Positions 7,276 to 58,049 of a stretch of DNA of 64,000 nucleotides are shown one piece after another. Position numbers and translations under genes: made by a program. This DNA is from an uncultured Thermoleophilaceae bacterium (GTDB lineage Bacteria; Actinomycetota; Thermoleophilia; Solirubrobacterales; Thermoleophilaceae). The notes below the pieces were generated by a model. It was not told the DNA's origin. It worked only from the letters and a program-made list of their open reading frames with translations, and did not search any database. Position 1 is the stretch's first letter. Every line of letters starts with the position of its first letter. The stretch covers positions 55,837-119,836 of the forward strand of contig CAWKKJ010000024.1 of assembly GCA_963850205.1 (NCBI GenBank), written 5' to 3'.

Positions 7276-8276
7276 CCGCGCCGGACCAGCACCCGCCGGC
7301 CGTACACTCGCCGCGGCGCCGGCGCGTCCGGGCTGAGCCACGCCGGCCGAGGCTCTCCCAAGAGCGTGGCGGCGAAGAAGTCCGCCGCCGCCCGGTCCAC
7401 CCAGGCCTGCTGGTCGGCGGGCCGCAGCAGCGACCCGTCGCAGCGAGAGGGGGCGTCGTTTCGCCGCAGGCGTGACAGGGTGCGGTTGAAGTAGTTGTGG
7501 TTGGCCTGCTCGAGCCGGGCCAGGAACACGCGGCGGCGGCGATCGGGGTTCCGGCGCGCCCGAGCGAGATACTCGCGGCCCATCGACCCGGTGTCTCCGT
7601 CGCACGAGCCGAGCACGACAGCGGCGGGCAGGTCGGGGAGCGGCACCCGGCCGAAGACCGGGGCCAGCAGGAACAGGGAGCGCACCCTCGCGCGGCCGTC
7701 ACCGCGGGCGAAGCGCACCGAGCGGTGGCCGCTCAGGGAGTGGCCCAGCAGACCCATGCGGCCAACCTCCACCCGTCCCTGCAGCGGCAGCCCGAACCTG
7801 CCCCCGCCGCCGATGGCCTCGCGGTCGAGCCGGTCCAGCAGCCGGATCACCAGCCGCGGCCAGCGCCGCAGGTCGTCCGGCTCCCCCCATCCGGTGGTGA
7901 AGCCGCCGTTGAGGTCCGGGGCCACGGCCACCATCCCGCGTTCCGCCAGCGCTCGCACCACGTGCCGCAGGCCGAGGTCGTTGCGCTGCTCGCGCGCGAA
8001 GCAGGGCCAGATCGGGGCGTCTGCCGGGCCGAAGGGGCAGTTGGTGTCGTGGCGGCCGTGGAGGACCAGCACCAGCGGCCGCGGGCCCGGCGCGGCCGCC
8101 GCGGTGGGAGCACCGATCGCGCCCCACAACCGGATCGGCACCGGCCCTTTGGGACCTGGGTCGGGCAGCTCGACGCGGCCCAGGTCGTAGTCGCGCACCT
8201 GGGCCGGCAGGGCGGCGGCCGTCCCGGGCAGGGCGAGCGCGAGGAGGCCGACGAGGGTCGAGAGAGCGCGCTTCAC
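7272..8276 (-). CDS. Secreted alpha/beta hydrolase (lipase/esterase-like)
   Basis: C-terminal 334 aa of ORF 7272..8702 (-), from GTG 8276. Signal peptide VKRALSTLVGLLALALPGTAAA and nucleophile elbow GHSLSG. The upstream part of the long ORF is filler. Confidence 0.65.
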   Translation of the reverse strand: MKRALSTLVGLLALALPGTAAALPAQVRDYDLGRVELPDPGPKGPVPIRLWGAIGAPTAAAAPGPRPLVLVLHGRHDTNCPFGPADAPIWPCFAREQRNDLGLRHVVRALAERGMVAVAPDLNGGFTTGWGEPDDLRRWPRLVIRLLDRLDREAIGGGGRFGLPLQGRVEVGRMGLLGHSLSGHRSVRFARGDGRARVRSLFLLAPVFGRVPLPDLPAAVVLGSCDGDTGSMGREYLARARRNPDRRRRVFLARLEQANHNYFNRTLSRLRRNDAPSRCDGSLLRPADQQAWVDRAAADFFAATLLGEPRPAWLSPDAPAPRRVYGRRVLVRRG

Positions 8277-18542: not shown

Positions 18543-19702
18543 CCGCCGCGAACGATCCCGCCGACGTAGGTGACCGGGGCGGTGTTGGGCTCGCCCGTGA
18601 CGGAGCAGATCGCCCGCGTGACGGTGCCGGCGTTCCTCCATGAGCTGCGCGCGTAACTCGACCAGCCGCTCTGGCTCCACAGCGTCACGCCGAGGAGGGT
18701 GACCCCCCGCTGGACGGTCTTGGCCTCCCCACCGAGCGTGTACTCGGTGCTCTTGGGCGCGACCAGCAGACGCTGGGGGCCGCGGATCGTGTGGCAACTG
18801 CCGTCGAGCACCTCCGCAGCGTCGTTGTAGGGCTTGTAGTAGGAGCCGCCCACGTGGCGGGTGGCCCCCAGCACCCTGGTGATGTCGTCGGGTCCCCGGT
18901 TGCAGTCGCGGCCCTTGAGGTAGAGGTACGAGTAGGAGAAGCGAGTCTGAACGTAGCGGGAGAAGCGGGAGGTGTTCGGCCTGAAGATCGATCCCTTTTC
19001 GCTCACGCTGCTCTTCGTCACCGTCGATTCTCCCCTGGCCTCGAACCCCTTGTAGCCGTAGGAAACGGCTCCGCCGATCGTGGAGTCCGCCTGGGAGCCG
19101 GTGGCGTACCGGTAGGTGGAGCGAAAGCCGTCCCACTGGTGAAGCTGCCCGACGCGCGTGTAGCGGTAGTAGCGACGCGAACGCACCCACTCGCAGTCCG
19201 CACGCTGGCTCGCCTCGGCCTGGAGCGCTCCGCCCGGCGCCCACGGCTCGAGCTGGAGGGAGGGCGAACGGGAGTCGCTCCCTGGGCGCGCCACCCAGTC
19301 CCCGTCCTCGAGCTTGCGGGTGAACGGCAGCACTGTCCGCCCGGCTGGAGACCTCACCAGGAGCAGCAGGTTCACCCAGCCGTTCTGGCGGGCGGCAACC
19401 CTCCGCAGCAGCGGGGAAGGAGGCGTCGTCACCCGGAAGGAGCCGTTGCGCACCCTGGCATAGCCGACGGATCGGAAGCTGCCCCGCCGGGCCCTCGAGC
19501 TCGGGTTGAGAAAGACCGTTGCGCCGGCCTCCGACGTCCCCGCAGCCGCCGCCCCGGCGGGTCCCGACACGCTTCCTTCGATCAGCTGGGGCGCTGCCGA
19601 CGCGGGCGCTGCAGCGAGTGCGACAATGGCGAGCGCGGCGACGGTGATGACGATGCGGCGAGCGGACAACGAGATCCTCCTGGGGCCGGTGGCGTGCTCC
19701 AT
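18539..19702 (-). CDS. Secreted hypothetical protein (Ser/Tyr/Arg/Thr-rich, 4 Cys), locally lower GC
   Basis: ORF 18539..19702 (-). Signal peptide ...ITVAALAIVALAAAPASAAP. SD-like GGGGGA upstream. No family recognised. The N-terminal ~90 aa resemble a carboxypeptidase-regulatory-like Ig domain (guess). Confidence 0.6.
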   Translation of the reverse strand: MEHATGPRRISLSARRIVITVAALAIVALAAAPASAAPQLIEGSVSGPAGAAAAGTSEAGATVFLNPSSRARRGSFRSVGYARVRNGSFRVTTPPSPLLRRVAARQNGWVNLLLLVRSPAGRTVLPFTRKLEDGDWVARPGSDSRSPSLQLEPWAPGGALQAEASQRADCEWVRSRRYYRYTRVGQLHQWDGFRSTYRYATGSQADSTIGGAVSYGYKGFEARGESTVTKSSVSEKGSIFRPNTSRFSRYVQTRFSYSYLYLKGRDCNRGPDDITRVLGATRHVGGSYYKPYNDAAEVLDGSCHTIRGPQRLLVAPKSTEYTLGGEAKTVQRGVTLLGVTLWSQSGWSSYARSSWRNAGTVTRAICSVTGEPNTAPVTYVGGIVRGG

Positions 19703-29288: not shown

Positions 29289-30432
29289 ATGCCCCGCCCC
29301 CGCACCCGGGCGCTGGTGGGCTTCGCGGCGTTCGGGCTCCTGTGGGGATTCTGGGGGGCGGAGCTTCCCGCCATCCAGGCGCAGGCCGAGGTGGATGACG
29401 GGGAGCTCGGGCTCGCCCTGCTGTGCATCGGGCTCGGCGCGCTGCTGTCGATGCGCCCCACCGGCCTGCTGGTGGACCGCGTCCCGTACGTGCTGCCGGT
29501 GACCGTCGCCTTGCTGGGCGCCGCTGCGATCGGCCCGGCGCTGGCCGGCTCGGCCGCGAGCCTGGCGGCCTCGCTGTTCGTCCTGGGCGCGTGCTCGGGG
29601 GCGATGGACGTGGCCATCAACGCCGAGGCCGCCGACGCCGAGAGCGACGGCGAGCCGCTGATGAACCTGGCCCACGGCGCCTTCTCGGCCAGCGTCGTGG
29701 TGTCGAGCGTCCTCGTGGGCCTGCTGCGCGAGCTCGATGCGTCGCCGGAGCTCGTGCTGGGGCTCGCTGCCGCGGTGCTGCTGACCGCGGCGGTGGCGCT
29801 GTCCCTGCTGCCGGGCCGCACACCGGGGAACGCCCGGCAGCGGGCTCCGCGCGCCTCCCTGCTGCGCATACCGCGGCCGCTGCTCATCCTCGGCGCCCTG
29901 GCCGCGCTCGCCTTCGTCATCGAGAACGCGTGGCAGAGCTGGGCCGCCGTCTACCTCGAGGGCAGCCTCGAGGCCTCGCCCGGGATCGCCGCGCTCGGGC
30001 CGGCGGTCTTCGCCGCGGCCGCCGCGGCGGGACGCGGCGCGGGCCACCTGCTCGCGCGGCGCCTGACCGACCGGACCATGCTGGCGCTGGGCGCGACCGT
30101 CGGCGGCGCCGGGACGCTGCTGGCCGCGCTGGCTCCCGGGAGCGCTGTCGCCCTGGCCGGGATCGGGGTGGCGGGTCTGGGGACCTCGATCTGCGCTCCC
30201 ACGCTGTTCAGCCTCGCCGGCCGCAGCGCCCGCCCCGAGCAGCGAGCCGCCGCGGTATCCGCGGTCACCACGCTCGCGTACCTCGGGTTCGTCGCCGGGC
30301 CGGCGCTGGTCGGCCTCGCCGCCCCAGGCGAGCAGCCTGCCGGCCGCCCTGGGAGGGGTGGCGGGCCTGGCCGTGCTGCTCGCCGTGGCCGCGCGCTTCG
30401 CGCCCGTGCCGGATCGCGTGTTCGTCCGGTGA
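29289..30432 (+). pseudogene. MFS transporter with an apparent +1 frameshift near the 3' end (pseudogene or homopolymer sequencing error)
   Basis: ORF 29289..30455 is MFS-like up to ...GPALVGLAA, then becomes Arg/Gly filler. The +1 frame from 30322 reads QASSLPAALGGVAGLAVLLAVAARFAPVPDRVFVR*, a good final TM helix with stop at 30430-30432. The shift sits in C-run 30322-30325. Confidence 0.7.
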
Positions 30433-30466: not shown

Positions 30467-30467
30467 C

Positions 30468-31058
30468 ATGCTTATCACTATGACTGCCATGGACGTCATC
30501 GATCGCGTAGCGGCCGAGACCGATCTCGAGCCGGAGGCCGTGGAGCGCGTGGTCGCTGCGCTGGCGGCCCACAACGGCCATGCGGAGGCCGGCGCCGCCG
30601 AGCTGATCGAGGCGCTCATGCCGGTGCCGCTCACGGTACCCACTCCGGCGGCGGTGCTGCAGGCGAGGCGCAACGCCGAGGCGCGCACCGCGCTCCTGCG
30701 CGAGTTCGGGGCCCTGCGCAGCGCCGAGGTGGCCGAGCTCGCGGGCTCGCGGGCCGGGAACCGGGCCGCGCTGGCCAACCGCTGGCGCAGCGAGGGCCGG
30801 GTGCTGGCGGTGGGTGTGGGCGACGAGCTGCTGTACCCCGGATTTCAGTTCACCTCCGAAGGCCGGCCCCACGCCGGCGTCGCGGAGGCGCTGCGCCTGC
30901 TGCGGACGGCGCCCGGCCTCACGGACTGGCAGGCCGCCCTGTGGTTCGCCACCCCCACCGGCTGGCTGGAAGGCCGGCGGCCGGTGGACCTGCTCGACGA
31001 GGATCCGGCGGCCGTCGCGGAGGCGGCCGAGCGGGAAGTCAGCGCGATTGCCGGTTAG
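30468..31058 (+). CDS. Xre/MbcA/ParS-type antitoxin (DUF2384-like C-terminal toxin-binding domain)
   Basis: ORF 30468..31058. The C-terminal segment LTDWQAALWFATPTGWLEGRRPVDLL is typical of antitoxins paired with RES toxins. The start is ambiguous (30468/30480/30489). Confidence 0.7.
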   Translation: MLITMTAMDVIDRVAAETDLEPEAVERVVAALAAHNGHAEAGAAELIEALMPVPLTVPTPAAVLQARRNAEARTALLREFGALRSAEVAELAGSRAGNRAALANRWRSEGRVLAVGVGDELLYPGFQFTSEGRPHAGVAEALRLLRTAPGLTDWQAALWFATPTGWLEGRRPVDLLDEDPAAVAEAAEREVSAIAG

Positions 31059-31686
31059 CGGGGCCGTCCCGCCGCCGGCGGGGGACCTCGACCCGCTCGT
31101 GCACGAGTGGCGGGCCGGCGAGCTCATCGTGCGCTGTCACCACCGCCGGCATGGGCCGACCGTGTTCAACCGGACCGCCGCGGACGGTCGATTCCGGCCG
31201 GTTCGCAGCGAGGGCCGCATCGTCGGCACGCTGTACGGGGCCGGCGATGTGGCCGGCGCGCTCTCCGAGACGGTCTTCCGTGCGGTGCCCGTCGGGCCGG
31301 GCCCCAAGCGGATGGCGCGCGCCCTGCTCGAGCCGATGGTGGCCTCGACCCTGAGCCCCCGGCGACGGCTCCGGCTCGCATCGCTCCACGGCCACGGCCT
31401 GCGCCGTGTGGGCGCGACCCGGGCCCAGCTGATCGACTCGGAGGCCGGCGCCTACCCGCAGCTCGCCGCCTGGGGCCAGGCGTTGCACGACTGCGCACTG
31501 TTACCCGACGGGATCGTCTGGCGCTCACGCCACTACGACGACGCCTACGCGATGGTCCTGTTCGCCGGCCGGGTGGACCGGCGCGACCTCGAGGTCGAGC
31601 GTCCACCGCTCGCGCTCGCCGCCGGACCCGGCTTCGAGCTGGCGCTCGACCTCGCCGAGCGGGCCGCCATCACCATCGTGCAGTAG
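31048..31686 (+). CDS. RES-domain toxin
   Basis: Tail of ORF 30814..31686. R-E-S signature in GRFRP, ALSETVF, VWRSRHY. The start is TTG 31048 (overlapping the antitoxin stop) or GTG 31099. Confidence 0.75.
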   Translation: MPVSGAVPPPAGDLDPLVHEWRAGELIVRCHHRRHGPTVFNRTAADGRFRPVRSEGRIVGTLYGAGDVAGALSETVFRAVPVGPGPKRMARALLEPMVASTLSPRRRLRLASLHGHGLRRVGATRAQLIDSEAGAYPQLAAWGQALHDCALLPDGIVWRSRHYDDAYAMVLFAGRVDRRDLEVERPPLALAAGPGFELALDLAERAAITIVQ

Positions 31687-37134: not shown

Positions 37135-37142
<8 letters not shown>

Positions 37143-37270
37143 CCTGCGCGGCCTGCTCGGGCTGGCGGCCATCCTGGCCGTCGCCTTCGCCGTTTCCAGG
37201 AACCCGAGGCCCTGATCGGGTACACCAACGCCGGAATCGACCTACTGTTCGGCCGCATCGTGGGCGGCAA
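37135..37270 (+). pseudogene. nupC-like nucleoside transporter, 5' remnant
   Basis: My own translation: MDDLRGLLGLAAILAVAFAVSRNPRP* (ATG 37135), then in another frame EALIGYTNAGIDLLFGRIVGGK. Both match the first helix and first loop of CNT/NupC proteins (E. coli NupC: ...LALAVVAILALLVSSDRKK... and LLGFANEGTNFVFG). Confidence 0.55.
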
Positions 37271-37300
37271 GCACGAGGAGAGGCCTCCCATCCCTTCCCG

Positions 37301-37515
37301 GCGCCGCCTCGCCCCGGTACGGCGGGAAGGCGGCTCACCCGTGCGGGCCCGGTCCGAGTGTGGCTTCCGAAAGTCGCGGTATCCGCGACTTCTAGACGCC
37401 ACACCCTCGCAGCGGCGGCTCCGGTGCAACAGCGCAGCGACGGGTGTGACAGAGGCGCGACGAGCGCCGGCAGGGACGGTTCCCCCTTACCCAGCCCCCA
37501 GCGGCGCCCGAGCCG
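37301..37515 (+). repeat. Unannotated ~215-bp repeat, copy A (47-nt hairpin core at 37358-37404, conserved 18-mer at 37424-37441)
   Basis: Direct comparison with the reverse complement of 55880-56138. Shared elements are ccgagtgtggcttcc...aagtcgc...atccgcgacttct...gccacaccc and gtgcaacagcgcagcgac, at identical 19-nt spacing. Confidence 0.8.
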
Positions 37516-37544
37516 CCACCCGCAGCCGAGCCGAGCGCCGCCTC

Positions 37545-37688
37545 CTACTCCCGCAGAATCAGCACGGTCCCGAGCGCCAGCAGCGCGATCCCGAGCACCC
37601 TCTTCCAGGTCAGCGCCCGTTCCGGCAGCCCGAGCACCCCCAGGCGGTCCAACACCACCGAGAAGGCCAACTGGCCGGCGATGACGGG
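37545..37688 (-). pseudogene. 3' remnant of a DMT-superfamily YdcZ/DUF606-like membrane protein
   Basis: ORF 37545..37739 (-). Only the last ~48 aa (PVIAGQLAFSVVLDRLGVLGLPERALTWKRVLGIALLALGTVLILRE) look like the family's C-terminal repeat. The upstream residues are filler. Confidence 0.5.
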
Positions 37689-37801
37689 GCCGTCGCCCCG
37701 CCGGCCCGGGGGAGGTGGCGCAGCTCGGGCTGAAGGCACTGCCGGCCGGCTCGCTGGTGAACCTGGGCAACGCGGCTATTGCGGGTGTGGTGGCGGCGTA
37801 G
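37689..37801 (+). pseudogene. nupC-like nucleoside transporter, 3' remnant
   Basis: My own translation of the frame ending at TAG 37799-37801: ...GEVAQLGLKALPAGSLVNLGNAAIAGVVAA*. Compare the E. coli NupC C-terminus ...[28 protein letters not shown]. Confidence 0.55.
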
Positions 37802-37802
37802 C

Positions 37803-38198
37803 ATGCCGCCCACGCCCGCCTTCACCACCATCTTCCCGATCCTGACCACCGCGGACCTCGCGGGGGCGCTCGCGTTCTACCGCGACCTGCTCGGGGCGAC
37901 GGTGACCTACCAGTTCACCGGCCCCGACGGCGAGCCGGGCTACGTCGGCCTCGAGCTCGGGGACGCTCATCTCGGGATCGGGCGCGACCCGGATGCGGAG
38001 GCCGGGCCGACCCCGCGCTTCAGCCTGTGGGTCTACACCGACGACTGCGACGCGGCCGTCGACCGCCTGCGCCAGGCGGGGGTGACCGTCCTCGAGGAGC
38101 CGGCCGACCAGCCCTGGGGCGAGCGCGTCGCGCGGGTCACCGACCCGGACGGGAACACGGTGATCGTCGGTCAGCCGGCGGCGGACCAGCCGGGCTAG
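37803..38198 (+). CDS. VOC (glyoxalase/bleomycin-resistance) family protein
   Basis: ORF 37779..38198 trimmed to ATG 37803. Typical VOC pattern (FPILTTADLAGALAFYRDLLG ... VTDPDGNTVIV). Confidence 0.8.
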   Translation: MPPTPAFTTIFPILTTADLAGALAFYRDLLGATVTYQFTGPDGEPGYVGLELGDAHLGIGRDPDAEAGPTPRFSLWVYTDDCDAAVDRLRQAGVTVLEEPADQPWGERVARVTDPDGNTVIVGQPAADQPG

Positions 38199-38230
38199 TG
38201 CGCGCCGCACCTGGGCCCCCTGCTGAAATC

Positions 38231-38323
38231 GTCGCGACGTTATTGCGGCCCTACGGCCGAAACGTCACGATCGTGCGGCCACGCTGGTTGGTTGCGACGT
38301 TATTGCCGCCCTAGCGGCAAGCG
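38231..38323. repeat. Two 27-33-bp direct repeats at a 60-bp period in a convergent intergenic region
   Basis: gtcgcgacgttattgcggccctacggcc (from 38231) versus gttgcgacgttattgccgccctagcggc (from 38291), read directly. This is the AT-richer gap between the VOC gene and the DtxR-family gene. Confidence 0.6.
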
Positions 38324-40864: not shown

Positions 40865-40890
40865 GGCATGGACGCTAACGTGCCGCCCTC

Positions 40891-41850
40891 GTGACGCTTC
40901 CGCTCAAGCCGCCGCTGAAACCCCAGCTCGCCCGCTCGGCCAAGGCGCTGCCCGCGGGCGAGGGCTGGTGCTTCGAGCCCAAATGGGACGGCTTTCGCAC
41001 GATCGTCTTCCGCGACGGCGACGACGTGCACCTCCAGAGCCGCAACGGGCGGCCGATGAACCGCTACTTCCCCGACGTGGTGGAGCAGGTGCTCCAGCTG
41101 CCGGCGGAGCGCCTGGTGCTGGACGGCGAGATGGTGGTGATGGTCGACGGAGTCCAGGAGTTCGACCTGCTCTCCCAGCGCATTCACCCGGCCGCGTCGC
41201 GGGTGGAGATGCTGGCGAAGGAGACGCCCGCGCACCTGGTGGCCTTCGATCTGCTGGCCGACGGCGACGAGGTGCTGATGGAGCTGCCCTACACCGAGCG
41301 CCGGGAGCGCCTGGCGCCGCTGATCGCCGACCCGGTGGAGCTCACGCCGGTCACCGACTCTCCCGAGGGCGCCGGGGAATGGCTGGCCGGCACGGGCGAG
41401 GGCGTGATCGCCAAGCAGGCCGACGCGGCCTACCTGCCCGGCGAGCGCAAGGGCATGATGAAGATCAAGCGGGTGCGCACCGCGGACGCGGTGGTGGCCG
41501 CCTTCCGCTACGGCAAGGAGCCGAACACCGTCGGCTCGCTGATCCTCGGGATGTACGGCGACGACGGCGAGCTGCACATCGTGGGCCACACCTCGAGCTT
41601 CAAGGCCCAGCAGAAGCGGGACCTGATCGATCTGCTCGAGCCGTACCGCACCGGCGAGCGCGGCTCGGGCGAGCCCAGCCGCTGGAAGTCGGACGAGGAG
41701 CTGGTCTGGGAGGGCCTGCGCCCCGAGCTCGTGTGCGAGATCTCCTTCGACCACATCACCGGCCGGCGCATCCGCCACGGGTCGAAGTTCCTGCGCTGGC
41801 GCGAGGACAAGGACCCCACCGAATGCGACCTGGACCAGCTGCGCGACTGA
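40891..41850 (+). CDS. ligC: ATP-dependent DNA ligase (LigC-like, ligase-only)
   Basis: ORF 40891..41850 with a GTG start. Adenylation motif I EPKWDGFR and downstream nucleotidyltransferase/OB motifs (EGVIAK, MMKIKR). Confidence 0.85.
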   Translation: MTLPLKPPLKPQLARSAKALPAGEGWCFEPKWDGFRTIVFRDGDDVHLQSRNGRPMNRYFPDVVEQVLQLPAERLVLDGEMVVMVDGVQEFDLLSQRIHPAASRVEMLAKETPAHLVAFDLLADGDEVLMELPYTERRERLAPLIADPVELTPVTDSPEGAGEWLAGTGEGVIAKQADAAYLPGERKGMMKIKRVRTADAVVAAFRYGKEPNTVGSLILGMYGDDGELHIVGHTSSFKAQQKRDLIDLLEPYRTGERGSGEPSRWKSDEELVWEGLRPELVCEISFDHITGRRIRHGSKFLRWREDKDPTECDLDQLRD

Positions 41851-43631: not shown

Positions 43632-44955
43632 CTACACCAGCTCCCCCAGCCGCCGCTCCAGAAAGGCCCGCTCCACCGGGTTCGTGACCAGCTCGATCGC
43701 CCTGCCGTAGGCCTCCGCGGCCTCGTCGTCGCGGCCCAGGCGACGCAGCAGGTCGGCCCGTGTGGCGTGGAGCAGGTGGTAGCGATCGAGCTCGCCCCGC
43801 CCGGTCAGGACCTCCACCAGCGCCAGCCCGCGCTCGGGCCCCTCGGCCTGCGCCACCGCCACGGCGCGGTTGAGCTCGATCACCGGGCTCCGGCTGCGGC
43901 GGGCCAGCAGCCCGTACAGCTCGGCCACGCGGCTCCAGTCGGTCGCGTCGGCCGTGTGCTCGGCCGCGATCGCGGCCTGCAGGCCGTAGGGGCCTTCGGC
44001 TCGAGCGCGCGCCGCCAGCGCCACTCCCTCGGCGATCTCGTCCCGGCGCCAGAGGGAGCGGTCCTGGTCCTCCATCAGCACCAGGGCCCCGTCGTCGTCG
44101 AGGCGCGCGTCGCGGCGCGAGTGATGGAGCAGCATGAGCGCCAGCAACCCGGTGGCCTCGCTCTCATCCGGCATGAGGCTCACCAGCAGCCCGGGCCAAC
44201 CGGATGGCCTCGTCGCAGAGCTCGCGGCGCACCAGGGTGTCGGCGCTCGTGGCCAGATAGCCCTCGTTGAAGATCAGGTACAGCACGGCGAGCACCGACC
44301 GCAGCCGGTCGGGGAGCTCGTGGTCCTCCGGGACCGTGTAGGGGATGCGGGCGTCGCGGATCTTGCGCTTGGCCCGCACGATGCGCTGCTGCATCGCGCT
44401 CTCGGCGGTCAGCAGCCCGCGCGCCACCTCGTGCGCCGAGAGGCCACCCAGCATGCGGAGGGTCAGCGCAACCTGGGCCTCGGGCGCGAGGGCCGGGTGG
44501 CAGCAGGTGAAGAACAGGCGCAGGCGGTCGTCCGGGATCGTGCTTGTCAACGGGTCCTCCGGCTCGCCCGGCATCAGCAGCTCCAGCTCCCGCAGCTTCT
44601 CCTGGTAACGGCGCTCGCGGCGCAGGCGGTCGATCGCGCGGTTACGAGCGGTGCGCACGATCCAGGCGCGCGGGTTGTCCGGCAGGCCGTCGCGCGGCCA
44701 GCGCTCCAGCGCGGTCACGAACGCCTCCTGCACCACGTCCTCGGCGAGGTCGAAGTCGCCGAGGATGCGGATGAGGGTCGCGACCGCCCACCCCGACTCG
44801 CGCCGGAACAGGCGGTCGACGACCTCCGCGGGCGCTCCTACGGCGTGGCCTCCGCGCCCGCCGAGCTGGTGTGCACCTCGGAGCCGACCGCCTCGTAGTC
44901 CATGACCGGACGCACCTCGACCGTCCCGCCCGGCATCGGGATCCTCTTCGCCCAC
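43632..44955 (-). pseudogene. ECF42-type sigma factor with C-terminal TPR-like extension, split by an apparent +1 frameshift (pseudogene or homopolymer error)
   Basis: ORF 44164..44955 (-) carries sigma regions 2 and 4 ([47 protein letters not shown]). ORF 43632..44183 (-) carries the extension (LLALMLLHHSRRDAR...QDRSLW...GPYGLQAAIAAEH...LNRAVAV...YHLLHATRADLL). The junction reads ...IRLAR|LLVSLMPDE once one G of GGG (plus-strand CCC 44190-44192) is removed. The true start is unclear: the only canonical in-frame start is ATG 44955, which overlaps yciI by 118 nt. Confidence 0.75.
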
Positions 44956-45814: not shown

Positions 45815-46785
45815 TGCCGAACCCGCCCGCCCCCGTGCTGGTGGCCCCCGACTCGTTCAAGGGCACCTTCTCGGCGGCCGAGGTAGCGGCGGCGATCGCC
45901 GCCGGGCTGCGGGCCGAGGGCCGCGAGGCTGACGAGCTGCCCGTGGCCGACGGCGGCGAGGGGACGATGGGCGTGCTGGTGGGGGTGCTGGGCGGCGAGG
46001 TGCGCACGCTCAGCGCCAGCGACCCCCTGGGCCGCCCCGTGGAGGCCGGCTACGCACTGCTTCCCGACGGCACCGCCGTGGTGGAGACCGCGCAGGCGAG
46101 CGGGCTCGGGCTCGTGGCCGAGGAGGAACGCGACGCCTGGGCGGCCTCCACCCGGGGCACAGGTGAGCTGATCGTCGCGGCGATCGAGGCGGGCGCCGAC
46201 AAGGTGATCGTGACCGTCGGCGGGTCGGCCACCAGCGACGGCGGGGCCGGCGCTCTCGAGGTCATGGCCGACGCCGGCGTGACCGCCGAGATCGACGTGC
46301 TCACCGACGTGCGCACCGTCTACGAGGACGCCGGCAGGGTGTTCGGTCCCCAGAAGGGCGCGCACCCGGCCATGGTGGAACGGCTCACCGAGCGCCTCCA
46401 CGAGCTGGCCTCCCGCTTCAAGCGCGACCCGCGCGGCGAGCCGATGACCGGGGCGGCCGGCGGCCTGTCCGGTGGGCTCTGGGCTGCGCACGGAGCCACC
46501 CTGCGCTCGGGCGCCGCCTACGTGCTCGACGCCATCGGCTTCGACGACCGCATGCGCGCCGCTCCCTTCGTGGTCACCGGCGAGGGTCGCCTGGACGACC
46601 AGACCCTGCAGGGCAAGATCGTCGGCGAGGTGGCCACCCGCTGCCGTCAGGGCGGCGTCACCTGCCACGCGGTGGTCGGCCAGAACGCTCTGGAGCCCTT
46701 CCAGGAGCGGATCATCGACCTGGCCTCGGTGACCGAGGCCGGCACGCTCGACGAGCTGGAGGCCGCCGGGCGCGCGCTGGTCTAG
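45811..46785 (+). CDS. glxK: Glycerate kinase
   Basis: ORF 45811..46785. VAPDSFKGT, ADGGEGT, GGSATSDGGAG, GEGRLDDQTLQGK. GTGA/ATG overlap with the macro-domain gene's stop. Confidence 0.85.
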   Translation: MMPNPPAPVLVAPDSFKGTFSAAEVAAAIAAGLRAEGREADELPVADGGEGTMGVLVGVLGGEVRTLSASDPLGRPVEAGYALLPDGTAVVETAQASGLGLVAEEERDAWAASTRGTGELIVAAIEAGADKVIVTVGGSATSDGGAGALEVMADAGVTAEIDVLTDVRTVYEDAGRVFGPQKGAHPAMVERLTERLHELASRFKRDPRGEPMTGAAGGLSGGLWAAHGATLRSGAAYVLDAIGFDDRMRAAPFVVTGEGRLDDQTLQGKIVGEVATRCRQGGVTCHAVVGQNALEPFQERIIDLASVTEAGTLDELEAAGRALV

Positions 46786-47672
46786 TTGTTGGAACCCGTT
46801 CGCCGCGCGACCGACACCGAGTAGGCCCGCGGCCGGAAGCGCAGGATCGGGTCGTCGCTGAGCTCGATCCCGTCGGTCACGCGGGTGGGGTCGAACACCA
46901 GGATGTCGCCGTCCCGCTCGCGCTCGGTCTCGGGACCGGTCAGCTCGAGCCGGCCCACCTCCACCCGCTCCCGCTCCGCCGGCCAGGCCGCCGTCGGGTC
47001 GTCCAGCGGGTCCCCTTCGGCGCCCACCGTCACCACCAGCCGGAAGGCCGCTCCGGCGCGCTCGGCGATGTCCCGCTGCAGGTAATCGGCTCCGCGTGCC
47101 TTGGCCTCGTCGCGGGCGAGCGCACGCTCGCCCACCTCGGGCTCGAAGCGATAGCGCACATGGCGCACACCGCCGCCGTCGTCGAGCCAGCGGTAGGCGT
47201 GAAGCGAGTTGTAGGCCACGGTGGCGTAGCTCTCCGGCGGCTCGGCGCCCAGCGCCGCCTGGATCGCCGGCAGCGCCTCGGGGTGCTGCTCGAGGAAGGC
47301 CGGCATCAGCCGCTCGGGGTCGGTGCGGGCCTCGGTGAAGGCGAGGAAGTCCTCGGGCGTGCGCACGAAGAAGCAGGGCAGGCTGAGCGCCACGATGTCG
47401 GTGCGCGAGCCGTCGGGGAGGTAGAACTTCACCGCCATCCCCCGGCCCTCGCGCGCGTAGTCGGGAATCGCGGGATCCCCGCCGCCGTTGCTGAAGCGAA
47501 CGGTCACGCCGACGGGCTCGTCCTGGAGGTGCGCGGCCCGGGTGAGCCCCGAGGCCGACGGCGTGAAGCGCCCGGCCATCAACGTGCCCTTCGCGTGCGC
47601 CGCCCGGTGGCCCGGGTGGGCGCCGGACGCGGCGTTGATCGCATCCACCGCGCGCTCGGCCAGGGAGTCCAT
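46782..47672 (-). CDS. Catalase-related small heme protein (catalase-core only)
   Basis: ORF 46782..47672 (-), 296 aa. HRAAHAKG (distal His region) and VRFSNGGG. There is no C-terminal catalase domain. Confidence 0.75.
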   Translation of the reverse strand: MDSLAERAVDAINAASGAHPGHRAAHAKGTLMAGRFTPSASGLTRAAHLQDEPVGVTVRFSNGGGDPAIPDYAREGRGMAVKFYLPDGSRTDIVALSLPCFFVRTPEDFLAFTEARTDPERLMPAFLEQHPEALPAIQAALGAEPPESYATVAYNSLHAYRWLDDGGGVRHVRYRFEPEVGERALARDEAKARGADYLQRDIAERAGAAFRLVVTVGAEGDPLDDPTAAWPAERERVEVGRLELTGPETERERDGDILVFDPTRVTDGIELSDDPILRFRPRAYSVSVARRTGSNN

Positions 47673-47691
47673 GGGGGCACCCTACGAAAGC

Positions 47692-55842: not shown

Positions 55843-55879
55843 TAGGTGATTGATTCCGCGGCCGGGTGCGCGCGGGGGG

Positions 55880-56138
55880 CGCTCGGGACCGAGCCGGGCG
55901 GGGTAAGCAGGGCAACGCCGATACCCGGGTGTAATGGTCGGCGCCGTCTCCTGTCGCGCCGCCATCACCCCAGTCGCTGCGCTGTTGCACTTGCGCCGCC
56001 CGCCCAAGGGTGTGGCTTCCAGAAGTCGCGGATATGGCGACTTTGGGAAGCCACACTCGGGCCGCAACGGCCGGGCCGAGTCCCTCCTTATCCAGCCCCT
56101 TCCCTACCCGCGCATACCGCCACTCGGCGAGGCGGTGG
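55880..56138 (-). repeat. Unannotated repeat, copy B, inverted relative to copy A (hairpin core 56010-56056, conserved 18-mer 55973-55990)
   Basis: The reverse complement aligns with 37301-37515. Core length (47 nt) and core-to-18-mer spacing (19 nt) are identical. The outer stem is a perfect 11 bp here (gtgtggcttcc/ggaagccacac). Confidence 0.8.
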
Positions 56139-56285
56139 CGGATCGGGCGCGGCTGGAGGCCGGGTGGACGAGTCCGATGACCCCGATCCGGCGACGCGCT
56201 GTGCGCGAGGGCTCGGGCTGGCCCGGACCAAAGCGGACGGTATCCCTGCCGTCATCCGCGTGCGCGGGGACGTGGAATCAGTCAT

Positions 56286-56675
56286 CTAGGGACCTGAGTC
56301 GAACAGCAGCGCCGTGACCACCGGCCGCGACTCCGGCGCCGGCTGGTCGTAACCGGAGTAGGGGCGGTTGAGGAGATGCCTGCGGTGCACGAGCGTGGCC
56401 GAGCCGCCGCCGTCGAGGTTGATCGCCTCTTCCGCGCCGAAGGAGATCAGGAGCCGGGCGAGCTCGGCGAGGTCGAGCCCGCCGTCGACGCCGGAGCGCC
56501 GCCCGTCGCAGCACAGCGCCAGCAGCTCGGTCTCGCTGAGGCCCAGCGCGCAGCGGGGGTGGCGGGCGGCCGTGATGTCGGAGTCGAACTGCCCCGAGCC
56601 GGCCGAGAAGCCCTCCCGGTCATCGGCGTCCATCAGCGAGCGCCCGTCCGTCACCAGCAGGGGCCCGGCCTGCAC
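56286..56675 (-). pseudogene. Phosphodiester glycosidase (NAGPA/DUF2233) domain, C-terminal portion only
   Basis: ORF 56286..56675 (-). GPLLVTDG...HPRCALGLSE...CCDGRR...LDLAELARLLISFGAEEAINLDGGGSATLV matches the distal half of the domain. The open frame cannot extend past 56732 and the cupin gene ends at 56747, so the N-terminal half is absent. Confidence 0.5.
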
Positions 56676-56746
56676 CAGGTCGCCGCCCGGCTCGTCGCCA
56701 AGGTCCGCGCGGGCGGCATCCGCACGCCGCCGTCAGTGGCTGAGGC

Positions 56747-57229
56747 TCAGCCGCTCTCGGGACCCGTCTCGCCGAGCCAGTAGTCGACGGCGCTCGAGCG
56801 GGTGGTCATCAGGTTGTCGTCGCGGTTGCCGGTCCAGATGCCGATCTTGTCGCTGTCGGGATAGACCGTCGCGGCCGGGTAGTTCACCGTCGAGAACATG
56901 AGCACGCGAACGGTCTCATCGGTCTCGTTGCGCACGGCGTGAGCGCCGTCGGGTCCCGAGGGAAAGCAGGCGGCGTCCCAGGGCTCGAGCTGCTCGGTGC
57001 CGTCCGGGTGGCGAACCGAGGGGCGTCCCTCCAGGACCAGCAGCCACTCCTCCTCACCGTACTCGTAGTGGTAGGGGGTGATGGCCTGCCCCGGAGGCAG
57101 CTCGTACACGCTCGCTCCGGTCCGGGCCGCTCCCAGCGCCGGGCCGAAGCGCAGCATGCCGACCTTGAAGCCCGGCGGGTCGGTGTCCTCGTACGTGAAG
57201 TCCGGCGAGGCGATGTTGATGCGCTGCAT
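56747..57229 (-). CDS. Cupin-domain protein
   Basis: ORF 56747..57229 (-). Cupin motifs around PYHYEYGEEEWLLVLEG and PDGAHAVRN. Confidence 0.75.
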   Translation of the reverse strand: MQRINIASPDFTYEDTDPPGFKVGMLRFGPALGAARTGASVYELPPGQAITPYHYEYGEEEWLLVLEGRPSVRHPDGTEQLEPWDAACFPSGPDGAHAVRNETDETVRVLMFSTVNYPAATVYPDSDKIGIWTGNRDDNLMTTRSSAVDYWLGETGPESG

Positions 57230-57238
57230 CGGGCGAAT

Positions 57239-58049
57239 CTACCGCTGGGTGGCTCCGAGGATGAGCTGGGAGGTCTCGAGCGGGACGTCGAGCTGGGGAC
57301 AGTGGCCGATGCCCTCCAGCTCGACCCAGTCGGCGTGGGGCAGCCACTCGTGCCGATAGCGGACCGCGGCCGGCGGCCAGGGCAGAAGCCGGTCGGCTGT
57401 GCCCCAGACGATCCGGACGGGGCACGCGATCCGCTGAGCGTCGAGGCTCCAGCGGTCGCGCAGGGCCTGATCGATCAGCGGCTGGGCCGCGCAGCCCGCC
57501 GCGCCCCGCAGCTGGTGGGCGAGGAGCTCGGCGGGGATGTGCTCGAAGTTCGTGGTGAGGTACTGCGTGGCCCGGCGCCGGCCGCGCGGGGGAGGCCATG
57601 ATCGCCTCCGCATGCGGAGCGGCCTCCTTCGCCATGTCGTGCAGCGTCGCCTGGAGGGCGAGGGTTCGCTGGTGGGACTCGTCGCCCTCCGCCCAGCCAC
57701 CGGCCGGGGCGAGCGCCACCACCGTGTCGGCTCGCCCGCGCACCGCGAGCTGCAGCGCGATCCAGCCACCGAGCGAGTTCCCGGCGATGTGCGCGGTCGC
57801 GAAGCCGGCCTCGTCCATGCTCCGCTCGGCGTCGTCGACCAGCAGGGCGCCGCTGAGGCGGTCCGGCTCGACCAGCGGCCCGCCGGCGTGGCCGGCCAGG
57901 GTGGGAGCCAGGACGTCGTGACGGCGCTCCAGGGCGGGCAGGATGAGCTCCCAGGTGCGCCAGGTGTCGGCGAAGCCGTGCAGGCAGACCAGCGGCGGTC
58001 CGGAGCCGCCCCGGTGTGATGCCGTGAAGGTCGCGTCCAGGTCGGTCAC
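57239..58049 (-). pseudogene. Alpha/beta hydrolase with an apparent +1 frameshift (pseudogene or homopolymer error)
   Basis: ORF 57054..58436 (-) gives LVCLHGFADTW...GNSLGG...AEAIMASP and then filler. ORF 57239..57769 (-) supplies RRRATQYLTTNFEHIP...VWGTADRLLP...GIGHCPQLD. The two join cleanly if one C of the C5 run (plus-strand G5, 57588-57592) is removed. 811 nt = 3n+1. GTG start at 58049. Confidence 0.75.

Follow-up and report, generated by a model that had tools for sequence, protein, structure and literature searches.

The repeat found at two loci of the 64-kb window (the whole stretch of DNA analyzed here) is probably a low-copy, lineage-restricted, non-autonomous MITE-like element, present as an intact copy (copy B) and as a truncated relic (copy A) in the debris of a nupC gene. 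We favor this reading because locus B is polymorphic for the insertion, because the inserted segment is non-coding and bounded by terminal inverted repeats (TIRs), and because what appears to be a second, older insertion lies at another locus. The element also seems dispensable, since locus A is deleted in the strains L084, L085, and L104 and copy B is truncated in L100. Uncompensated breaks in its palindrome and the fit with published MITE criteria, both discussed below, point in the same direction. Two insertions, at different places and apparently at different times, would therefore make this a mobile, or at least a duplicative, element.

A structured core at two loci

An earlier note, made from the letters of the window, had described the stretch 37301-37515 as recurring in inverted orientation, and reading and aligning both regions confirmed the recurrence. 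What the two loci clearly have in common is a core of ~112 nt, at 37350-37461 on the plus strand (copy A) and 55953-56064 on the minus strand (copy B), with 83% identity (BLASTN, E=3.5e-28). This core consists of a 47-nt hairpin followed by a 19-nt spacer, an exact 18-mer, and a small stem. The quasi-palindrome of 47 nt that had been proposed is indeed present at 37358-37404 (+) and 56010-56056 (-). The 18-mer, GTGCAACAGCGCAGCGAC, is identical in the two copies (37424-37441, +; 55973-55990, -) and has no third match in the window at up to three mismatches, the chance expectation being 0.17. The spacing of 19 nt between hairpin and 18-mer holds in both window copies, as claimed, and so does the GGCGC/GCGCC-type stem 3' of the 18-mer, with loops that differ between the copies. 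In copy A, this small stem lies at 37455-37469; read on the minus strand, the core of copy B runs from the hairpin (56056-56010) through the spacer to the 18-mer (55990-55973) and the start of the small stem. The hairpin of copy B comprises an 11-bp outer stem and a 7-bp inner stem. The hairpin is stable in both copies, and only the copy B region folds better than shuffled sequences (z=-4.35; z=-1.03 for the copy A region). Both copies are situated between convergent genes, ~100 to 200 nt or less from the stop codons.

The flanks of the core had also been said to align. Compared directly, the two window copies lend this weak to marginal support (right flank, p~0.03; left flank, p~0.09; semi-global alignment against shuffles). 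The claim fares better through the copy A allele of L102, 159 nt of which align with copy B at 79% identity, ~50 nt of them lying left of the hairpin. Homology thus extends past the core.

L-numbers designate related loci, which were retrieved with the phosphomannomutase protein encoded beside copy A and the MFS transporter encoded beside copy B; they include sister strains, 97-99% identical in nucleotide sequence, and more distant relatives of ~90% and ~83% identity. The closest relatives of both proteins come from ENA/JGI metagenome-assembled genomes (MAGs), some of which are named Solirubrobacteraceae, Solirubrobacterales, or Thermoleophilaceae. The window has a GC content of 72.5%, which at first suggested a Streptomyces origin; this was rejected in view of these protein relatives, which point to a Solirubrobacterales-like MAG lineage. 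The 1-nt frameshifting indels seen among the strains all fall in homopolymer runs of what seem to be long-read MAG assemblies and may be sequencing errors; we give them little weight as proof of non-coding status.

Within the data searched, the repeat is confined to the two loci of the window and to a single species-level cluster. An exact scan for the 18-mer in 185,579 GTDB species genomes returned no case in which it occurs together with the hairpin; the 83 exact 18-mer loci are unrelated, being mostly coding or chance matches lacking the hairpin. A hairpin arm gave only ten chance matches in JGI metagenomes and IMG/VR, and these scans of GTDB, JGI, and IMG/VR demand exact 18- to 20-mers. 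BLASTN with copies A and B against plasmid and phage collections yielded nothing relevant. When a spurious open reading frame inside the element was used as a protein query, it retrieved the L100 orthologue only, together with two unrelated repetitive proteins. A covariance model, which the earlier note had proposed as a check, was built from the copies and run over the window and 12 related loci (279 kb) with no additional copy detected; its weak match at window positions 19555-19654 (19 bits, E~0.05) was rejected, being devoid of the hairpin.

A bounded 446-nt segment at locus B

Copy B had been placed at 55880-56138. The locus is right, and the element is wider: it spans 55843-56288 (446 nt, minus strand) and, read on that strand, has the same orientation as copy A. 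This segment is present in the window and in the sister strains L098 and L101, and a later deletion has shortened it in L100. In L099, a ~91% relative, a 51-nt intergenic region replaces it between the same MFS and NAGPA genes, and the empty site is recognizable there as the MFS stop codon followed by GACCTGAG, with no element. The edges of this indel coincide exactly with imperfect TIRs of 18 nt, which match at 15 of the 18 positions. On the MFS side, TAGGTGATTGATTCCGCG (55843-55860, +) lies at the indel boundary with respect to L099 and pairs with TAGATGACTGATTCCACG (56271-56288, -) on the NAGPA side, which provides the stop codon of a truncated NAGPA gene. At this level of agreement, the window has no match besides these two (0.08 expected), and the end pattern can be written as TAGRTGAYTGATTCCRCG. 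The two ends pair with each other in the predicted fold of the whole element and are richer in AT than the 72% GC background, and the hairpin and 18-mer sit in the middle of the element.

Copy B bears no coding signature: the GC content by codon position is flat in all six frames (0.68-0.76), whereas real genes of the window show a GC3 of ~0.9 and a GC2 of ~0.5, and no Pfam family matches it at E<=1. The window regions examined show no transposase. Among the readings offered by the earlier note, that of a MITE is thus supported for copy B, which is 446 nt long, non-coding, and bounded by TIRs exactly at the indel edges. The same note had named a lack of further copies, a match to IS ends, and a coding signature as findings that would tell against its view. 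Further copies were indeed missing from the collections searched, and copy B is explained by its IS-like ends; a coding signature, on the other hand, is absent.

The junctions of copy B read CCTAG-TA-GGTGATT... and ...GTCATC-TA-GGGACC, with TAG/TA at both and a CTAG context, which suggests a possible target duplication of TA or TAG. Its register is ambiguous (TA, TAG, or CTAG), and at least one G separates the reconstructed site from the empty site of L099. In L105 (~83% relative), the next outgroup, another spacer, 145 nt long, lies between MFS and NAGPA, from which the ancestral site is not readable. This spacer (L105 5462-5606) contains the element-like strings CAAAGTCG, GCACACCCTTACCCCGC, and GATGACTTGA; as a candidate relative of the element it was rejected, the alignment not being significant (p~0.07). 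We propose that copy B entered the space between two convergent genes, at a CTAG/TAG site that directly follows the MFS transporter stop codon, and that this would have happened after the split from the ~90%-identical L099 relative.

The empty site itself has a structure of its own. In L099, the stretch 7462-7512 that separates the convergent MFS and NAGPA genes holds an inverted repeat (GACCTGAG...CTCAGGTC), which probably acts as a bidirectional terminator; beside copy B in the window, only the first arm of this hairpin (GACCTGAGTCG) survives. We speculate that the hairpin of the element may serve as a replacement bidirectional terminator at locus B.

Several neighboring genes differ in length among the strains. 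The NAGPA protein (a phosphodiester glycosidase) has 148 aa in the window versus 242-248 aa in L098, L099, and L101, and a comparison of window 56286-56766 with L098 12357-12965 indicates that ~600 nt of L098 are missing from the window. Other window genes seem truncated or split relative to Pfam or to their relatives, namely, those for a catalase (46782-47681), a DUF6596 sigma-factor fragment (43632-44273), and GSDH. Such truncated genes could reflect real decay or indel errors of long-read MAGs. Further downstream, the 616 nt at window 57406-58021 are absent from the 99%-identical L098, a strain-level deletion; L099 and L100 have an alpha/beta-hydrolase gene at this place.

Copy A among the remnants of nupC

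Copy A lies in what is left of a gene for a CNT nucleoside transporter. In the ~83% relative L087, a NupC gene of 424 aa is intact downstream of the phosphomannomutase gene, with no element, and in the window aa ~45-332 are replaced by copy A and a fragment of ydcZ. The N-terminal remnant of the nupC pseudogene lies at 37135-37281 (+), where tblastn places aa 19-44 of the L087 NupC at 37200-37277 (E=8.5e-9) and the DNA is homologous to nupC of L086 and L087. The C-terminal remnant lies at 37712-37790 (+), with aa 333-352 at 37712-37771 (tblastn, E=2e-7) and DNA homology to L087 12769-12873. Between them, copy A takes up 37282-37544 (+) as an internal element fragment without terminal repeats, extending from the NupC aa 19-44 fragment (which ends at 37277-37281) to the stop of the ydcZ fragment at 37545. 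That fragment (37548-37685, -), convergent with copy A, is the C-terminal part of a gene for a DMT exporter of the YdcZ type, of which the final ~45 codons remain; it matches positions 99-140 of the 140 in the Pfam profile PF04657 (E=1.4e-9) and co-diverges with copy A in L102 and L086. A search for TIR-like sequence near copy A found none. The string CCGCAGAATCAGCAC (37551-37565), tried as a right TIR, was rejected: it corresponds to the final codons of the ydcZ fragment, and L103, L102, and L086 differ there. Lacking TIRs and adjoined by this gene fragment, copy A therefore was no simple insertion of a MITE.

The state of locus A varies widely among related genomes. L103 (98% identical) resembles the window, the sister strain L102 carries a divergent allele of the whole block, and L086 (~89% relative) retains only the 3' half of the core and the ydcZ fragment; the hairpin is lost there, and nupC coding sequence reaches right up to the fragment. 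In L084, L085, and L104 (97-99% identical), the whole region has been deleted. The deletion of L084 and L085 has TGGCGGC, a 7-nt microhomology, at both edges, a configuration that had hinted at the opposite event, an insertion of window 37170-37790 with a 7-bp target duplication. We reject this option. Both N- and C-terminal NupC fragments lie inside that segment, and L084 and L085 therefore carry a microhomology deletion.

More generally, nupC, which follows the deoA-like and phosphomannomutase genes, is broken differently in every genome closer than L087, through truncation (L086), internal replacement (window and L103), or near-complete deletion (L084, L085, and L104); the coordinates compared are window 37135-37800, L084 11650-11740, and L104 11500. 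Strain-level differences are seen nearby as well. Between the glyoxalase gene and that for an IdeR/DtxR-type repressor, a segment of ~3.4 kb (L085 12096-15573; L102 12984-16205) corresponds to 123 nt in the window (38198-38320); it codes for a sulfatase-domain protein of 1086 aa in L085, split in L102. Roughly 514 nt of an MFS_1 gene that is intact in L084 are missing in L085 (window 29669-30182 versus L085 4710-4713), a deletion polymorphism. At window ~30467-31685 (L084 5004-6222), a gene for a 196-aa protein without a Pfam match, which overlaps the start of that for a RES-domain protein, is kept in all sister strains; this pair has a layout resembling that of RES-Xre-type toxin-antitoxin modules.

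The states of the two loci across related genomes suggest an order of events. The element, or maybe a longer parent including or abutting ydcZ, would have entered nupC after the split from L087 and before that from L086, and copy B would have been inserted later, after the L086/L099 split. Copy A would thus be the older insertion, made into nupC together with or beside the 3' fragment of ydcZ, a gene that the parent element may have carried. Its ends may since have been lost through microhomology-type deletions, which are frequent here. Hairpin and 18-mer would be internal element sequence rather than an independent RNA gene, and the element would have been mobilized in trans by a putative transposase recognizing its TIRs.

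A duplication that did not involve any transposase is an alternative that we consider unlikely. An A-like fragment could have been captured as filler DNA at a double-strand break, or copied through ectopic recombination, the inverted ends of copy B being fortuitous. Deletions and rearrangements at short microhomologies are frequent in these strains, as exemplified by the TGGCGGC deletion of L084/L085 and by the deletions of L104 and L100, and the window encodes an ATP-dependent (LigD-type) DNA ligase (40879-41850). Besides, just two loci are known, and copy A carries a fragment of the neighboring ydcZ gene, as a segmental event would. However, chance is very unlikely to have placed a 15/18 inverted repeat precisely on the two edges of the 446-nt indel, and the AT-richer ends are set off from their GC-rich background. 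Moreover, ~190 nt of copy B (56099-56288) have no counterpart at locus A, and copy B was therefore not copied from the present A locus.

Several points also weigh against the MITE-like reading itself. MITEs are usually multi-copy, whereas only two loci are found here, the exact-word, protein, and covariance-model searches having added none; neither a partner transposase nor an IS sharing its ends is known; the duplication at the target site is not unambiguously readable; copy A, as noted, was no simple insertion; and at both loci the core is better conserved than its flanks, which is unexpected for a purely neutral relic.

Conservation of the core and comparable elements

The last of these points could be accounted for by selection on the core. 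Copy B orthologues (three strains) vary at 1 of the 112 core sites versus 20 of the 334 sites elsewhere in the element (Fisher p=0.035), and the copy A alleles of L102 and the window are 94% identical in the hairpin and 93% in the 18-mer region, compared with 72% in the adjacent non-coding DNA and 85% in the ydcZ fragment. This lower variation is only suggestive of constraint, because independent sequences are few and gene conversion is possible. It is nevertheless conceivable, if rather improbable, that the core is a selected functional module (a small RNA, a 3'-UTR element, or a protein-binding site), paralogous at the two loci, which in copy B may ride a mobile vehicle. The core is the only part clearly common to A and B, and the hairpin-to-18-mer distance is kept in both window copies. 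The order of its parts is that of a hairpin, a single-stranded 18-mer containing ACAGCGCAGCGA, and a 3' stem-loop, and a stem-loop follows the 18-mer in every copy in spite of differing sequence.

Against such a module stand several results, which together leave the structured-RNA option of the earlier note without positive support from Rfam, covariation, or promoter and terminator scans. At the gathering threshold, Rfam has no match in the whole window; with permissive settings, nothing appears at locus A at E<=10, and locus B gives miRNA-model noise far below threshold, and thus no family matches the repeat at either stringency. Matches to a sigma-70-type promoter or an intrinsic terminator were not found, by scans that may not suit the host phylum. 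None of the 18 hairpin pairs shows compensatory changes; across window copy A, the L102 copy A allele, and copy B, each pair is invariant or broken in one copy, and the covariation term of RNAalifold is -0.31 kcal/mol (about three independent sequences, hence of low power). The palindrome is damaged at a different place in each copy (TAGAC in window copy A, CA in copy B, and G in L102), and this uncompensated damage would look like that of a decaying DNA palindrome. The small 3' stem of L102 forms in a shifted register and therefore does not represent true covariation. Copy A, furthermore, is deleted in three near-identical strains, its hairpin is gone in L086, and in the collections searched no copies were found outside the species-level lineage.

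A last alternative, which we regard as very improbable, sees in the palindrome a cis-element of the host that was duplicated because it was useful, be it a bidirectional terminator or attenuator for convergent genes or the operator of a dimeric regulator: both copies lie close to the stop codons of convergent genes, the hairpin is very stable (18-20 bp), and copy B occupies the place of the hairpin present in L099, half of which is deleted in the window, but a U/T tract is absent on either side, locus A is flanked by dead gene fragments, which leave a terminator without a task, sister strains do without the locus, and no similar hairpins are seen between other convergent genes of the window.

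We therefore return to the MITE-like reading and to the families with which such an element can be compared. REP and REPIN sequences are 20-40 nt long, begin with a GTAG-type 5' tetranucleotide, occur in tens to hundreds of copies, and are mobilized by RAYT transposases, encoded by a RAYT gene. Like a REP, the present repeat is an extragenic imperfect palindrome between convergent genes, and copy A taken alone resembles one. Unlike REP or REPIN sequences, its 47-nt palindrome lies inside a TIR-bounded unit of 446 nt, the visible copies number two, and the window shows no RAYT gene; the REP-like option of the earlier note thus fits neither in size nor in visible copy number.

The Correia elements of Neisseria and the MITEs derived from IS630/Tc1-mariner elements are small, TIR-bounded, inserted at TA, and often located beside gene ends. 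Correia elements measure 100-155 bp, carry 26-bp TIRs, and number in the hundreds; they can provide terminators or promoters and fold into hairpins once transcribed; IS630-type elements prefer TA targets, often CTAG. The TA/TAG within CTAG at copy B recalls this group, a likeness by description that is compatible with the family and not unique to it. Unlike in Correia and IS630-type elements, a TA duplication is not established at copy B.

According to published criteria, MITEs are shorter than 500 bp, have TIRs of 4-30 bp, keep direct repeats in young copies only, and are commonly accompanied by truncated copies devoid of TIRs; QMITE1 and QMITE2 of Coxiella burnetii and Chunjie of Geobacter uraniireducens are prokaryotic MITEs with truncated derivatives (PMC10969869). 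Like these three, copy B is below 500 bp and non-coding, has TIRs and a stable internal structure, and sits in an intergenic region at the 3' ends of genes. As with QMITE2 and Chunjie, it coexists with a partial, REP-like copy that has neither TIRs nor direct repeats, here copy A. The differences are that QMITE and Chunjie are AT-rich and occur in tens of copies, unlike the GC-rich (~70%) element described here with its two loci; that no parent IS is known and the target duplication is ambiguous in our case; and that the host is an uncultured Thermoleophilia/Solirubrobacterales-type actinobacterium.

The main use of these findings lies in annotation, where they avert the call of a spurious ORF or of a "novel RNA" and provide a strain marker. 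A new biological question would arise only if the conserved core were expressed or bound by protein. There is a slim chance that this core is a selected module (a small RNA, a subterminal site for a transposase or recombinase, or a terminator cassette) spread by a mobile vehicle in Thermoleophilia-type actinobacteria; if true, this would explain why it stays 83-94% identical amid decaying surroundings. To our knowledge, hardly any mobile elements have been described from uncultured soil bacteria of the Solirubrobacterales/Thermoleophilia. In this group, the element would offer a small and clean case in which a datable insertion (copy B), an older relic inactivating a nucleoside transporter gene (copy A), and rapid loss at the strain level may be followed side by side.
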